From Alphaproteobacteria bacterium (GTDB lineage: Bacteria > Pseudomonadota > Alphaproteobacteria > Rickettsiales > SXRF01), in the NCBI GenBank assembly GCA_039808985.1, contig JBDHUC010000003.1:18523-82522 (forward strand): DNA of 64,000 nucleotides, read 5' to 3'. The position numbers were made by a program, and so were the translations under genes. Positions 34,607 through 38,748 of this stretch are shown one piece after another. The notes beneath the pieces were generated by a model, which saw only the letters and a list, made by a program, of their open reading frames with translations, was not told the origin of the DNA and searched no databases. Each line of letters opens with the position of its first letter. Within the stretch, counting starts at the first letter, position 1.

Positions 34607-35539
34607 ATGAACCCTTACATCTCCATCGTCATTCCCGTTTATAATGAGGAAAAAACCCTGCCGATAATGTTCTCGCGGCTGCTTAAGGTTATGGATGGAT
34701 ACGGCAAGGCTTACGAAGTTATTTTCGTAAATGACGGAAGCCACGATAATTCGCAGGCGATACTGGCCGAACTGTTCGCTAAGCGCCCCGATGTGATACG
34801 CGTGGTACAGTTCATGCGCAATTACGGCCAGCACCCGGCGATCATGGCCGGGTTCGAGCATGTGCGCGGCGATGTGGTGGTGACGCTGGATTGCGACCTG
34901 CAGAACCCGCCGGAAGATATACCTAAACTGCTAGCACTTATCGAAAGTGGGCATGATGTGGTTGGCGGCCGCCGCGCTAACCGCCGTGACCTGGCATGGC
35001 GCAAGGCGGTGTCAAAATTTTCCAATATCGTGCGCAAGAAAATCACTAATATAGATATGGGCGACCATGGCTGCATGTTGCGCGCCTACAGGCGCAATAT
35101 AATCGACCAGATAGTTGCAATCGGTGACGCCTCGCCTTTCATAACCGCGCTTTCGCAGGAACTCTCAGGAAACCCGGCGGAAATTGATGTCGGCCATGAA
35201 GAACGCGCTGCCGGAGAATCGAATTATAATTTATATAAGCTCATACGCTATAATTTCGACCTTGTTACCGGGTTCTCGCTCGTCCCTCTTCAGCTTTTCA
35301 CCATAGTTGGAATGTTCTGCTCAGGCGCGAGTTTCCTGCTGGTATTATACATGGCGGCGCGGCGCATAATTATAGGGCCGGAAGTAGACGGCGTGTTCAC
35401 CTTATTCGCGATACTGTTTTTCCTGATTAGCGTAACCATGCTGGGGCTGGGGATCATCGGCGAATATGTGGGACGCATCTACAAGGAAGTGCGCCACAGG
35501 CCGCGCTATATGGTGAAAGAAATACTGGAGCGAAAATAG
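34607..35539 (+). CDS. arnC: undecaprenyl-phosphate aminoarabinose transferase-like GT2 (ArnC-like)
   Basis: 310 aa with 'ISIVIPVYNEE', 'FVNDGSHDNS' and 'DCDLQNPPE', plus two C-terminal TM helices. Confidence 0.85.
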   Translation: MNPYISIVIPVYNEEKTLPIMFSRLLKVMDGYGKAYEVIFVNDGSHDNSQAILAELFAKRPDVIRVVQFMRNYGQHPAIMAGFEHVRGDVVVTLDCDLQNPPEDIPKLLALIESGHDVVGGRRANRRDLAWRKAVSKFSNIVRKKITNIDMGDHGCMLRAYRRNIIDQIVAIGDASPFITALSQELSGNPAEIDVGHEERAAGESNYNLYKLIRYNFDLVTGFSLVPLQLFTIVGMFCSGASFLLVLYMAARRIIIGPEVDGVFTLFAILFFLISVTMLGLGIIGEYVGRIYKEVRHRPRYMVKEILERK

Positions 35540-35604
35540 CCACTTCCTTAACATTAATTTATGGGTTTATTTTTATCCTTATGACTAAGTAGTAAGGATA
35601 ATGC

Positions 35605-36477
35605 ATGGACAGAAGAACACTATATAAAAGCCTGGAGGCAAGCGACCAGTATTACAAAATGGTGTTTACGCAACCCCTCTCCCCACTTGAACAGATACGT
35701 GCTGTAAATAGCCAGAAAATTACCGGGTTCTGGAATGAACTGACAACCATAGAATCGCATCTAAAGACCATGGAAGCGGAACTCGGCCATAAATACAGCC
35801 CCAGCCAGCCACGCGTTCCAGCAGGCAACCCCGCAGGTGGGCAATGGACCAGCGGCAATTTCGGAAGCGGGGTTGGCGCGGAAGTATATGTTCCAGCGCA
35901 ACCAAAACCAAGCAGCAGCACCCCGCCATATATACCATCGCACAAGCCAGATAATAACGGCTCCATAATGAACTATGACGATGGGGGCGAGTATGATGAC
36001 TGGGATTATGGGGATGGTGGAGATGATACCCCAGTTTATGATGGCGAACCCGACCTTCCTATCGAGCCGGTGTATCCACTGGAAGAATTATTAGGACTGT
36101 GGGCTGGCGGGGAATTATTCAGTTCATTTGATATTTTCGGCGGAGGAGCCGCAGGCGCTGCCGAAGGAGGAATTGACGCTGGCACAGAAATAGGGGGTAT
36201 GATTACTGAAGGTAGTGCAGAAGATTTAAGTGTAGAACAATCACAGAATTTAATACGATTTGAGAAAAATCTTCCAAATGGAGCAACAGAAACAAGGATT
36301 TCCAACCTTCCAGATGGGAGCAAGGTATTGGAATCTGATGTTCCTGCAAATAATATACCTGGTTCTTATGCCACATATCAAAAAACTATTGATGCAAGTG
36401 GCAAAACTGTAAGATATACAAAAACAACTTATGCCCCAGATGGTAGCATAGTTCATACAAAGGTAAAATTCCCATGA
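35605..36477 (+). CDS. hypothetical protein: helical N-terminus, Gly/Asp-rich disordered centre, beta-rich ~85-aa C-terminal module (candidate toxin)
   Basis: 290 aa with no signal peptide or TM segment. It contains 'PRVPAGNPAGGQWTSG', an acidic 'DDGGEYDDWDYGDGGDD' tract, and the C-terminal 'GSYATYQKTIDASGKTVRYTKTTYAPDGSIVHTKVKF'. The gene interrupts the arn cluster. Confidence 0.6.
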   Translation: MDRRTLYKSLEASDQYYKMVFTQPLSPLEQIRAVNSQKITGFWNELTTIESHLKTMEAELGHKYSPSQPRVPAGNPAGGQWTSGNFGSGVGAEVYVPAQPKPSSSTPPYIPSHKPDNNGSIMNYDDGGEYDDWDYGDGGDDTPVYDGEPDLPIEPVYPLEELLGLWAGGELFSSFDIFGGGAAGAAEGGIDAGTEIGGMITEGSAEDLSVEQSQNLIRFEKNLPNGATETRISNLPDGSKVLESDVPANNIPGSYATYQKTIDASGKTVRYTKTTYAPDGSIVHTKVKFP

Positions 36478-36818
36478 TAGAACGTAAATCATTACTGGAA
36501 AAATTGGTCGGGTTTGATGCTAAACTAGCAATCATCCTACCTTTGTTACGGCAATTTGGCTGGGATAGTGACAAAACATTGGTTATACTACAGCGCGAAG
36601 ATATAGTTTCCGTATTAGATAGATATTTAAAATCGGTCTTGAGCGCATCTGACATTGAACAATGGGCAAATGCCATAGAAGGCAGGGAAGATATTGAATA
36701 TGAGGCTGGCCATGGAAGCACTATATCTGCCGCCATACACGAACTTGCAAATCCTATTCTCACTGCATCACTTACTATTAAAAATGCCAAAAAATTGATT
36801 GGGCAACTGCAACAATGA
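36474..36818 (+). CDS. hypothetical protein, candidate cognate immunity protein
   Basis: 114-aa acidic helical protein. Its ATG overlaps the upstream TGA as ATGA at 36474-36477. Confidence 0.55.
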   Translation: MIERKSLLEKLVGFDAKLAIILPLLRQFGWDSDKTLVILQREDIVSVLDRYLKSVLSASDIEQWANAIEGREDIEYEAGHGSTISAAIHELANPILTASLTIKNAKKLIGQLQQ

Positions 36819-36961
36819 TGAAGCAACTTATGAAAGAACAGAGAGTTAAAGATATATCTGATCATATTCTTGTAGACATGCCAGAAATGGAAATTGTACG
36901 CCAGAAAGCCAACTTTGCCTTGAAGCTGGTTAATGAGGCTGTTGCGGCGGCTAAATCTTAA
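36815..36961 (+). CDS. small hypothetical ORF (48 aa), third member of the coupled cassette
   Basis: It is not in the ORF track because it is under 60 aa. I translated it by hand as MMKQLMKEQRVKDISDHILVDMPEMEIVRQKANFALKLVNEAVAAAKS. Its ATG overlaps the upstream TGA (ATGA at 36815-36818), and TAA lies at 36959-36961. Confidence 0.35.
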   Translation: MMKQLMKEQRVKDISDHILVDMPEMEIVRQKANFALKLVNEAVAAAKS

Positions 36962-37041
36962 GCTTTTATTGACATATGCCAGGGTTATGTGGCAGAGATA
37001 CAAGTAACAACCAGTATAGTTAACTCTTACCATTAAATTAC

Positions 37042-38070
37042 ATGAAAATACTGATACTTGGCGCTAATGGCTTTATAGGCAGCCACCTGAGCGAATTTAT
37101 ACTTGGAAACCGCGACTGGGAAGTCTATGCCATGGATAAAAGCTCGGACAAAATATCCGACTTCCTGAAGCATCCGCGCTTCCATTTCGTCGAAGGCGAT
37201 ATAACCATCAACAAGGAATGGGTGGAATACCATGTTAATAAATGTGACGTGGTATTGCCGCTGGTGGCCATAGCCAACCCGGCAACCTATGTGCGCGACC
37301 CGCTTTCGGTTTTTGAACTGGATTTCGAGGCCAACCTTGAAATTGTCCGCCACTGCGTACGCTATAAGAAACGCCTGGTTTTCCCATCTACTTCCGAAGT
37401 GTATGGCATGAGCATGGAAAATCCTTACGATGAGGAAGAAAGCCTGCTGGTTACAGGCCCGATAAAAAAGGAACGCTGGATATATTCAAGCAGCAAGCAA
37501 CTCATGGACAGGGTTATTTACGCTTACGGCCAGCATAAAGGACTGGATTTCACCTTGTTCCGCCCGTTCAACTGGTTTGGACCCAAGCTTGATAATGTAT
37601 GGGAAAGCAAGGAAGGTTCATCACGCGTGGCTACCCAGTTCCTGAGCAATATTTTCCATGGCCGGGAGATTATACTGGTGGGCGGCGGGACACAGCGCCG
37701 CTGTTTCCTTTATATAGATGATGCCATTGAAGCTATGATGAAGATAATTGAAAATAAAGATGGCGTGGCAAATGGACGTATCTTCAATATTGGCCATCCC
37801 GATAACGATGTTTCAATAAAAGAACTTGCCGAACTGATGATTGATGTAATGGGCGAATTCAAAGGTTATGAGAAAGTGCGCGACAAGGTAAAAATAACCG
37901 TTAAGTCCGGCGAGGAATTCTTCGGCGCCGGCTACCAGGACCTGGTGGCGCGGGTTCCTAAAATAGATAACGCGAAAAACCTGCTGGGCTGGGAACCTAC
38001 GACCGATATTAAAACCGCGATCCGCAAAACCATAGCTTACTACCAGGCCAATATCCCGGCCAGCCTTTGA
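37042..38070 (+). CDS. UDP-glucuronate decarboxylase / UDP-4-keto-pentose synthase (stand-alone ArnA C-terminal domain type, SDR)
   Basis: 'KILILGANGFIGSHL' and 'HPRFHFVEGDITINKEWVEYHVNKCDVVLPLVAIANPATYVRDPLSVFELDFEANL' align closely with my recollection of the E. coli ArnA dehydrogenase domain. No formyltransferase domain is present. Confidence 0.85.
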   Translation: MKILILGANGFIGSHLSEFILGNRDWEVYAMDKSSDKISDFLKHPRFHFVEGDITINKEWVEYHVNKCDVVLPLVAIANPATYVRDPLSVFELDFEANLEIVRHCVRYKKRLVFPSTSEVYGMSMENPYDEEESLLVTGPIKKERWIYSSSKQLMDRVIYAYGQHKGLDFTLFRPFNWFGPKLDNVWESKEGSSRVATQFLSNIFHGREIILVGGGTQRRCFLYIDDAIEAMMKIIENKDGVANGRIFNIGHPDNDVSIKELAELMIDVMGEFKGYEKVRDKVKITVKSGEEFFGAGYQDLVARVPKIDNAKNLLGWEPTTDIKTAIRKTIAYYQANIPASL

Positions 38071-38223: not shown

Positions 38224-38748
38224 CTAGCGTTCCCTGGGCCTATGGTTATTTCTTCCTGCAATAAGCTTAAGCCTTTCTTGCTGCAATGAGCGCTCCTGCT
38301 CTTCCTGCCTCTGGGCAACGAGAGAGCGATATTCACCTGCCAGCTCTTCTACTGAGTTTACATAGGTAATTTTTGCATTTGGAAATTTATCTTTAATTTC
38401 AGCAGCAGCTACACTCTGCGCCGGAGCAAAATAACTATTATGGAAGCGGCTCCTTTTTTTCTCATGAACCTGGGGTATAGTAAATTTTATCGCTTTATCT
38501 TCCAGATTATAACCTGAATTATACCCAGCTTTTATTAGAAGGCTCTGGTGACTATAAAAAATATTTTTTACAGGGCCTGTGACCGCCCCCGTAAATACCA
38601 AAAATTTTTCATCTTTACCATTATGGCCAGGCGGCACCAACTCCAAAGGAAGCGCCTTTATGGGTATCGCTATCAATTCAACCGGTTCTTTCCCTGCTTT
38701 AGCCTGCACCCCGCCTGGCTTAATTTTATCTTGAAATTTTTTATTCAT
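38224..38748 (-). CDS. hypothetical protein
   Basis: 174-aa ORF with a Lys-rich N-terminus and an Arg/Glu/Gln-rich C-terminus. I recognised no motifs. It is the only long ORF in this interval. Confidence 0.45.
   Translation of the reverse strand: MNKKFQDKIKPGGVQAKAGKEPVELIAIPIKALPLELVPPGHNGKDEKFLVFTGAVTGPVKNIFYSHQSLLIKAGYNSGYNLEDKAIKFTIPQVHEKKRSRFHNSYFAPAQSVAAAEIKDKFPNAKITYVNSVEELAGEYRSLVAQRQEEQERSLQQERLKLIAGRNNHRPRER

Follow-up and report, generated by a model that had tools for sequence, protein, structure and literature searches.

A cassette of three genes, located at positions 35605-36961 of a 64,000-nucleotide stretch of alphaproteobacterial DNA (order Rickettsiales; assembly GCA_039808985.1, contig JBDHUC010000003.1, positions 18,523 to 82,522 of the forward strand; the whole stretch is referred to as the window), is very probably a polymorphic toxin-immunity locus inserted at the junction between arnC and the decarboxylase gene of an arn cluster for aminoarabinose modification of lipid A. 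The first open reading frame (ORF1) consists of a lineage-specific carrier (residues 1-198) joined to an exchangeable C-terminal tip, CT-A, with ORF2 as the constant companion of that tip, and units of tip and immunity gene are exchanged by recombination at a conserved pre-toxin region. Once exported, ORF1 would let its tip act inside the cytoplasm of competing bacteria, and ORF2 would bind and neutralise CT-A in the producer. Loci of this type are already known; the carrier, the tip and the immunity protein found here are uncatalogued. A polymorphic toxin/immunity module with horizontal insertion had been suggested by an earlier reading of the letters only (the sequence-only reading), and every computational hallmark that it proposed was found in the present analysis. 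The parts of the cassette are the following:

35605-36477, + strand: ORF1, 290 amino acids (aa), from the ORF list
35605-35805, + strand: variable N-terminal region of the carrier (residues 1-67), aligned with 8 other carriers, no Pfam match
35806-35850, + strand: invariant carrier box QPRVPAGNPAGGQWT (residues 68-82), from the nine-carrier alignment
35851-36048, + strand: acidic low-complexity Gly/Asp/Pro spacer (residues 83-148), its length differing among homologs
36049-36198, + strand: pre-toxin region, ending ...EIGG at residue 198, the best-conserved part between alleles
36202-36474, + strand: CT-A module (residues 200-290), from alignments A1/A3; AlphaFold2 predicted local distance difference test (pLDDT) 95; GC content at third codon positions (GC3) 0.163
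36474-36818, + strand: ORF2 ('ImmA'), 114 aa, putative cognate immunity protein with an invariant EQWANAIEGREDI core, from the family profile, the linkage and a model of pLDDT 94.8
36815-36961, + strand: ORF3, 48 aa, vestige of a displaced immunity gene, matching the C-terminal ~44 residues of ImmB, a 123-aa protein of a metagenomic relative (locus L003)

A C-terminal tip carried by unrelated scaffolds

A word-indexed search with ORF1 returned matches that share only residues ~205-290 with it, including MuF (PF04233) and Rhs/YD (PF25023) proteins as well as actinobacterial proteins and one Rickettsiales protein. At E<=0.001, the exhaustive profile search with alignment A1 retrieved 617 cluster representatives, of which 458 also reach E<=1e-10; the 150 listed range from 64 to 4649 aa, and almost all of them have the match at their extreme C-terminus. 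The long proteins combine RHS_repeat and DUF6531, others carry PT-TG, Phage_Mu_F or WXG100_2, and on twelve Leptospira plasmids CT-A stands at the end of Rhs-core proteins. This exchangeable tip of ~85 aa is thus borne by unrelated delivery domains, which is one of the marks of a polymorphic toxin.

The AlphaFold2 model of CT-A, obtained with a 10-sequence alignment, reached a pLDDT of 95 and a predicted template modelling score (pTM) of 0.82 and displays a helix (11-22) followed by five consecutive antiparallel strands, in agreement with the compact beta-rich C-terminal module anticipated from the sequence. Foldseek searches with this model gave a best match of E=0.085 in PDB, with none at E<=0.001 and no RNase among significant matches, and a best match of E=7.5e-3 in BFVD, again with none at E<=0.001; sequence-profile searches of PDB sequences with CT-A and ORF2 were empty. 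Scans of ORF1-3 against Pfam, NCBIfam, PHROGs and PADLOC returned no match, and no family recurred when 18 stand-alone CT-A copies were compared with Pfam at a permissive E<=10. Ntox10 (PF15520) was considered and rejected as the identity of CT-A: the match of the one Leptospira protein annotated 'polymorphic toxin type 10' covers model positions 1-81 of 193 only and lies upstream of the CT-A-like region, and the CT-A copies do not match the model.

Conservation was examined on the same 18 stand-alone copies, in ORF1 numbering. The polar residues R218, K260 and K288 are invariant, N215, Y258, K273, T275 and K286 are conserved at >=90%, and H284 is common without being invariant. No acidic cluster or metal site was found among the conserved positions, and the CT-A cores mostly have an isoelectric point (pI) of 9-10. 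Because one helix precedes a meandering sheet and a conserved Arg/Lys/Tyr/Thr cluster comes without an acidic metal site, metal-independent RNA cleavage or another nucleic-acid-directed attack may tentatively be put forward as the most likely activity of CT-A, an assignment that derives from topology and residue types only, the fold having no significant match to a solved RNase or toxin.

In cyanobacteria (L029-L038, L045, L048; for example L030, 3989-4608), CT-A is mostly a stand-alone ORF of 85-106 aa that overlaps its ORF2-family partner, and these copies are either orphan cassettes or toxin-antitoxin-like pairs.

ORF2 as a constant companion of CT-A

To describe the surroundings of the tip, CT-A loci were picked from the genome collection by two peptide patterns of CT-A only, which yielded 40 loci from at least 9 phyla, namely from metagenome-assembled genomes of Rickettsiales and Paracaedibacteraceae, from Azospirillum and many cyanobacteria, and from Actinomycetota, Bacteroidota, Verrucomicrobiota, Elusimicrobia, Desulfobacterales, Oligoflexia, Gemmatimonadota and Dormibacterota. 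An ORF2-family gene (profile A2, E 1e-19 to 4e-50) lies directly downstream of CT-A on the same strand in 40/40 of them, and likewise directly downstream in both Leptospira plasmid loci examined (5e-36 and 2e-34), for a total of 42/42. One 343-aa protein (P0021, from an ENA contig of 19.7 kb) even joins a MuF fragment, CT-A and an ORF2-like domain in one continuous ORF, to be explained by natural fusion or by the loss of a stop codon. The unrelated tip of L003 is followed by a different partner of 123 aa, meaning that the small downstream gene co-varies with the tip, as in other polymorphic toxin loci.

ORF2 has a pI of 5.3 within a uniformly acidic family (pI 4.2-5.3), in which a signal peptide was sought and none was found. 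Its AlphaFold2 model is a six-helix domain with a pLDDT of 94.8, for which Foldseek gave a best PDB match of E=2.2 and none at E<=0.001, and the Pfam/NCBIfam scan of ORF2 returned no DNA-binding family match. The small, acidic, helical and immunity-like protein of the sequence-only reading is therefore recognisable in the pI, the six helices and the 42/42 linkage. The C-terminal module, which that reading could not assign to a named toxin family, has no significant PDB match, and neither has the ORF2 model. Taken together, these results argue for ORF2 as the cognate immunity protein of CT-A. As ORF2 is acidic and devoid of a signal peptide and CT-A is mostly basic, the toxin would act in the cytoplasm of its targets.

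A lineage-specific carrier with diverse tips

ORF1 residues ~45-175 recur with unrelated C-termini (P0002, P0016 and P0022-P0025 among them). Alignment of nine carriers revealed a QPRVPAG..GGQWT box and a PD.PIEPVYPLE box separated by a variable Gly-rich spacer, the positions Q68, P69, R70, V71, P72, A73, G74, G78, G79, Q80, W81 and T82 of the first box being invariant. The carrier profile A4 matches 25/201 genomes of the same order, with up to 6 copies per genome, and 22 of them, distributed over many families, have the box. The tips found behind this box are CT-A, a Phage_lysozyme domain (GH24, 4e-38), a lipase-like alpha/beta-hydrolase with a GHSxGG motif, Ntox44 (1.6e-5) and the Colicin_E5 RNase (1.6e-6), both above the family cut-off, and several unknown modules; for another carrier tip, two proteins matched DUF4258 weakly but over its full length (E=0.075 and 0.17). 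Diverse C-terminal domains are therefore associated with one conserved N-terminal region, consistent with polymorphic toxins sensu Zhang et al. 2012, and alternative C-termini, which had been expected for this region, occur in 22/201 genomes and include GH24 lysozyme, Ntox44 and colicin-E5. The lysozyme and lipase tips imply that carrier proteins must leave the cytoplasm to act.

The layout of ORF1 is also as had been described, with a 'PAGNPAGGQWTSG' motif, an acidic Gly/Asp/Pro linker and a compact C-terminal module. The N-terminal region (residues 1-67) is predicted to be helical, the linker carries a net charge of -20 over residues 85-199, and the pre-toxin region comprises, besides the PDLPIEPVYPLE box (residues 149-160), a hydrophobic stretch rich in Gly/Ala. 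A signal-peptide-like or transmembrane (TM)-grade hydrophobic segment was sought in ORF1 and none was found, nor was any Pfam match at E<=0.1. In MuF-type proteins, too, CT-A is preceded by the PIEPVYPE(L) pre-toxin box. No paralogs of the cassette proteins were found elsewhere in the window's own genome.

Two other carrier loci were inspected. In L005 (GCA_974479005.1, 6914-8983), two carrier toxin/immunity pairs stand in tandem between surE and pcm, and in L006 (GCA_964450945.1, 8001-9075) one pair stands between pyrH and tsf on the opposite strand. Both cassettes are lodged in conserved housekeeping operons with no mobile-element genes nearby.

Allelic replacement of tip and immunity gene

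Apart from the window, an insert at the arnC-decarboxylase site was present in one metagenomic relative only, found twice (L003, L004). The L003 locus, in which the decarboxylase is 95.6% identical to that of the window and synteny is conserved, has the same carrier followed by an unrelated tip from residue ~199 onward. In 20-residue windows, identity between the two carriers is 0.4-0.7 over residues 1-140 and rises to 0.75-0.80 over residues 141-200, and it falls to <=0.4 past ...GGIDAGxEIGG; at the DNA level, homology ends at 36196 and restarts at 36473. The first small gene of L003 encodes the 123-aa ImmB, presumably the immunity protein of the L003 tip, and the second encodes a 113-aa protein that is 68% identical to ORF2 and constitutes an orphan immunity gene. 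ORF3 matches residues 78-121 of ImmB (66% identity, E=6e-17); in the same frame a stop codon stands 12 codons before the ATG, and the homology extends no further. This tail-only match, together with the upstream in-frame stop, shows ORF3 to be a truncated relic: the 48-aa ORF that had been found by hand translation does exist, not as the third member of a module but as an ImmB 3' remnant, the recombination scar of an earlier immunity gene.

The orphan ORF2 homolog, the ImmB remnant, the breakpoint and a drop in GC3 described below all point to replacement of tip and immunity gene by recombination, as known from polymorphic toxins. From these alignments, CT-A and ORF2 were swapped in behind a resident carrier, with the breakpoint at the conserved pre-toxin region.

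Insertion within the arn cluster

Upstream of the cassette lie a PBP1A gene and ArnT-, ArnB- and ArnC-type genes, the arnC product being an ArnC-type GT2 (NF007986, E=6.6e-99), and the gene downstream encodes a UDP-glucuronate decarboxylase of the ArnA C-terminal type (NF008872, E=2.3e-165). The three ORFs and both ATGA stop/start overlaps (ORF1/ORF2 at 36474-36477, ORF2/ORF3 at 36815-36818) were read in the sequence as they had been reported, and the numerous homologs of ORF1 and ORF2 and the protein match of ORF3 (E=6e-17) place these ORFs beyond chance. The decarboxylase was screened for in 31 related genomes and was present in 12, and its neighbourhood was taken from ten. In G008, G002, G005, G001, G009, G010 and G014, arnC adjoins the decarboxylase gene with a gap of 0-150 bp and no cassette. 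G008 is the closest cassette-free relative (same genus as the window genome, decarboxylase identity 96%); there the two genes share an ATGA overlap with no spacer (window positions 35536-35539 / 37042), so that the insert of ~1.5 kb sits exactly within a translationally coupled junction and breaks this coupling. The absence of the cassette from the arn clusters of seven relatives indicates an insertion and not a biosynthetic component; the proposed insertion and the lack of a role in lipid A modification are both borne out by it, homologs being found in unrelated contexts. The edges of the insert are:

35540-35604, + strand: left spacer, 65 nt 3' of arnC, left edge of the insert, homologous in L003
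36962-37041, + strand: right spacer, 80 nt 5' of the decarboxylase gene, right edge of the insert, TTTATTGACATAT... conserved with L003

The windowed GC content passes from ~0.47-0.53 to 0.36-0.40 across 36150-37050, and the values for the individual parts are:

arnC: GC 0.516, GC3 0.621
ORF1 residues 1-199: GC 0.513, GC3 0.472
ORF1 residues 200-290: GC 0.355, GC3 0.163
ORF2: GC 0.391, GC3 0.313
decarboxylase: GC 0.475, GC3 0.554

The break in composition is inside ORF1, where GC3 goes from 0.47 to 0.16. The AT-richness relative to the arn flanks that had been noted is consequently real and sharper than described, but it does not set in at a gene boundary, since it begins within ORF1 at ~residue 199. 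The low-GC3 part of the cassette is of foreign origin, judging from this composition.

In the left spacer, a hairpin (35575-35599, atcctta/taaggat) contains in its 3' arm the sole Shine-Dalgarno (SD)-like AAGGA of ORF1. L003 retains its 5-bp core CCTTA/TAAGG with a different loop, a conservation that is weak evidence because the 3' arm is already constrained as SD. A scan of the cassette flanks found no promoter- or terminator-like sites on the + strand, with counts not exceeding those in shuffles, and no + strand promoter-like site 5' of the decarboxylase gene. This fits, if weakly, with co-transcription of the cassette with the arn genes, which is probable.

Further downstream, a 174-aa ORF without Pfam match (38224-38748, - strand) lies between the decarboxylase gene and an EAL gene. 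Its identity is 76% in G008 and 50% in L003, compared with 93-96% for its neighbours, and it was not detected in G002, G005 or G001.

Possible routes of export

The window genome (2.05 Mb, 62 contigs, estimated 100% complete) was searched for delivery machinery. No MuF (PF04233) gene, no TssC sheath of a type VI secretion system (T6SS) and no contractile phage-type sheath were found in it, and delivery by MuF proteins, by a T6SS or by an extracellular contractile injection system (eCIS) was rejected for this genome. A type IV secretion system (T4SS) is represented by two VirB4 genes; VirB4 is present in 199/201 genomes of the order, so the T4SS cannot discriminate between them and is uninformative. 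The combination of a double-glycine leader with a C39-peptidase exporter was likewise rejected: the sole ABC exporter with a C39-like domain (L105, G000:C33:104-2038) shows DTG at the position of the catalytic DCG and Glu at that of His, replacements that designate a degenerate, HlyB-type domain and a component of a type I secretion system (T1SS).

The portal, S78 protease and HK97 capsid genes of the window genome are on contig C7 and not with the cassette. In this region (L101, G000:C7:1-5100), cytochrome b561 and YceI genes separate the portal gene from those of the S78 protease and HK97-type capsid, and L101 is a scattered head module, either resembling a gene transfer agent (GTA) or derived from a degraded prophage. 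In another genome, G167, one gene (L102, 8071-9204, contig C29) encodes a caudovirus prohead protease (Peptidase_S78, 4e-34) fused to the carrier box and a C-terminal '...WRNNNPGNLR...' module that is also found on an ordinary carrier (L077). The fusion gene lies between portal and capsid genes and is followed by a 206-aa ORF without family match.

Alternative explanations

Several observations weigh against a polymorphic toxin locus as presented above. ORF1 has no signal peptide, no secretion gene is nearby, and carrier cassettes of other genomes are also inside housekeeping operons. The order of the elements differs between alleles, with ImmA followed by the ImmB remnant in the window and ImmB followed by ImmA in L003, so that more than one exchange event is required. 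The fold of CT-A has no significant match to a solved RNase or toxin (PDB E=0.085; BFVD E=7.5e-3) and H284 is not invariant, many cyanobacterial CT-A copies are stand-alone ORFs of ~90 aa that, with their partner, could be intracellular toxin-antitoxin pairs, and the locus was present in none of the RNA runs searched. Some of these points would also be accounted for by an intracellular toxin-antitoxin, addiction or abortive-infection module, in which ORF1 stays inside the cell and ORF2 serves as a labile antitoxin, the pair stabilising itself in the genome or killing the cell upon phage attack. Such a module would agree with the lack of a signal peptide, a TM segment and adjacent secretion genes, with the location of related cassettes within operons (surE-pcm in L005, pyrH-tsf in L006, arnC-decarboxylase here) and with the many cyanobacterial CT-A/ORF2 pairs that form stand-alone two-gene modules with a toxin of ~87 aa. 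It is nevertheless improbable, given that Rhs, PT-TG, WXG100 and MuF proteins, all of them scaffolds for export or delivery, terminate in CT-A and that the carrier also bears a GH24 lysozyme and a lipase-like hydrolase, active only outside the cytoplasm. The absence of a PADLOC match, the first position of the toxin gene and an ORF2 without recognisable DNA-binding domain speak in the same direction, and orphan immunity genes and remnants typify competition loci.

It is also conceivable, at a quite low probability, that ORF1 is packaged as capsid cargo in the manner of MuF toxins, the carrier targeting it into a GTA-like or prophage head and the particle injecting the recipients. In alphaproteobacteria CT-A is frequently joined to MuF fragments, the PIEPVYPE(L) box is common to MuF- and carrier-type proteins, in G167 the S78 prohead protease continues into the carrier box and a toxin-like tip, and genes for a portal, an S78 protease and a capsid are present on contig C7 of the window genome. 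However, carriers and S78 proteases do not co-occur (S78 in 14/22 carrier-bearing genomes versus 136/201 overall), and six genomes that are 95-100% complete have carriers and no S78. The window genome is moreover without a MuF gene, CT-A was absent from 50,697 phage records, and the protease fusion is a single case that could be an accidental insertion. A role of the three genes as accessory components of the arn aminoarabinose pathway, for which only the position speaks (between arnC and the decarboxylase gene, on the same strand, with no predicted promoters or terminators at the flanks), is effectively refuted: the genes are absent from the arn clusters of seven relatives in which arnC adjoins the decarboxylase gene, homologs of ORF1 and ORF2 are encoded in unrelated surroundings across many phyla, the same site in L003 is occupied by another tip and partner, and the composition is foreign. 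The polymorphic toxin-immunity locus therefore remains the preferred explanation. A stronger form of it, in which the N-terminal carrier defines a previously unrecognised route for the export or delivery of interbacterial effectors in the order Rickettsiales (no signal peptide, T6SS, contractile sheath or MuF) and CT-A/ORF2 is a new fold pair of uncatalogued activity, is rather unlikely.

Distribution in activated sludge and significance

The cassette was found in at least 20 metagenome runs from activated sludge, wastewater or bioreactors, belonging to at least 11 studies, and contigs from four independent sludge studies carry an identical cassette with zero differences. In runs X1 and X12, which come from two studies, arnC has 21 and 12 shared substitutions respectively, all at or before 35503 (34696-35503), followed by zero differences over the next 524 bp, an outcome with a probability of ~6e-6 at the arnC substitution rate. 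A second arnC haplotype joined to the identical cassette in two studies suggests a recombination boundary at the left edge and hints at recent recombination there, although these joins may be assembly chimeras.

Polymorphic toxins shape competition in dense communities, for example activated sludge, and to our knowledge interbacterial weaponry in this alphaproteobacterial order is little explored. CT-A is a widespread tip (617 clusters, at least 9 phyla, Rhs, MuF and WXG100 scaffolds) with a confident model and no known structure or family, and the locus also yields a strictly linked immunity family and a carrier specific to one alphaproteobacterial order, most members of which are host-associated. 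The two alleles, the orphan immunity gene and the scar of a gene are found together at one chromosomal site, a clean natural example of a tip/immunity swap. The small size, good conservation and easy expression of the CT-A/ORF2 pair make its activity directly testable.

Comparison with known systems

Type II toxin-antitoxin systems differ from the cassette in that the 198-aa carrier of ORF1 also occurs in lysozyme- and lipase-tipped proteins and in that ORF2 has no DNA-binding family match, differences that may not extend to the stand-alone cyanobacterial copies. The gross topology and residue set of CT-A resemble those of the metal-independent BECR-fold RNases (barnase, EndoU, colicin E5/D, RelE) as a preprint defines them (10.64898/2026.08.28.747851). 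Like them, CT-A is small, has an N-terminal helix followed by a meandering antiparallel sheet and possesses an Arg/Lys/Tyr/Thr(/His) set without a metal site, next to an acidic cytoplasmic immunity partner; sister carriers also bear colicin-E5 and weak DUF4258-like domains. Helix 11-22 and the five strands are compatible with BECR topology, but this topology is generic. Unlike the solved members, to which Foldseek found no significant similarity, CT-A has five strands instead of four, and no Pfam BECR family appeared at E<=10 across 18 CT-A copies.

Delivery within capsids has been proposed for the MuF toxins of temperate phages by Zhang et al. 2012 (PMC3482391) and Jamet et al. 2017 (PMC5576092). 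CT-A and an ORF2-family partner occur on MuF (PF04233) proteins, the PIEPVYPE(L) box is shared, and in both cases the protein is short, has no stalk and is followed by a small immunity ORF. In contrast to these toxins, ORF1 has no MuF domain, PF04233 is missing from the whole genome, the locus is in an arn operon and not in a prophage head or packaging module, and CT-A is absent from sequenced phages. With Rhs/YD-repeat and WXG100/LXG toxins, which are T6SS- and T7SS-associated, the cassette shares the same tip family at the extreme C-terminus followed by an ORF2-family gene; unlike them, ORF1 has no Rhs repeats, PAAR or WXG100 domain, and the genome has neither a T6SS sheath nor a contractile one. 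A type VII secretion system (T7SS) is not expected in this Gram-negative lineage.

MafB loci (Jamet et al. 2017) and CdiA loci resemble the cassette in architecture rather than in sequence, the QPRVPAG..GGQWT carrier being unrelated to them and lacking a signal peptide and DUF1020, FHA or VENN elements. As in these loci, a family-defining N-terminus precedes variable tips, tip and immunity gene recombine at a conserved pre-toxin sequence, and orphan immunity genes and gene fragments are kept, orphan toxin/immunity modules being a feature of loci for contact-dependent inhibition (CDI).

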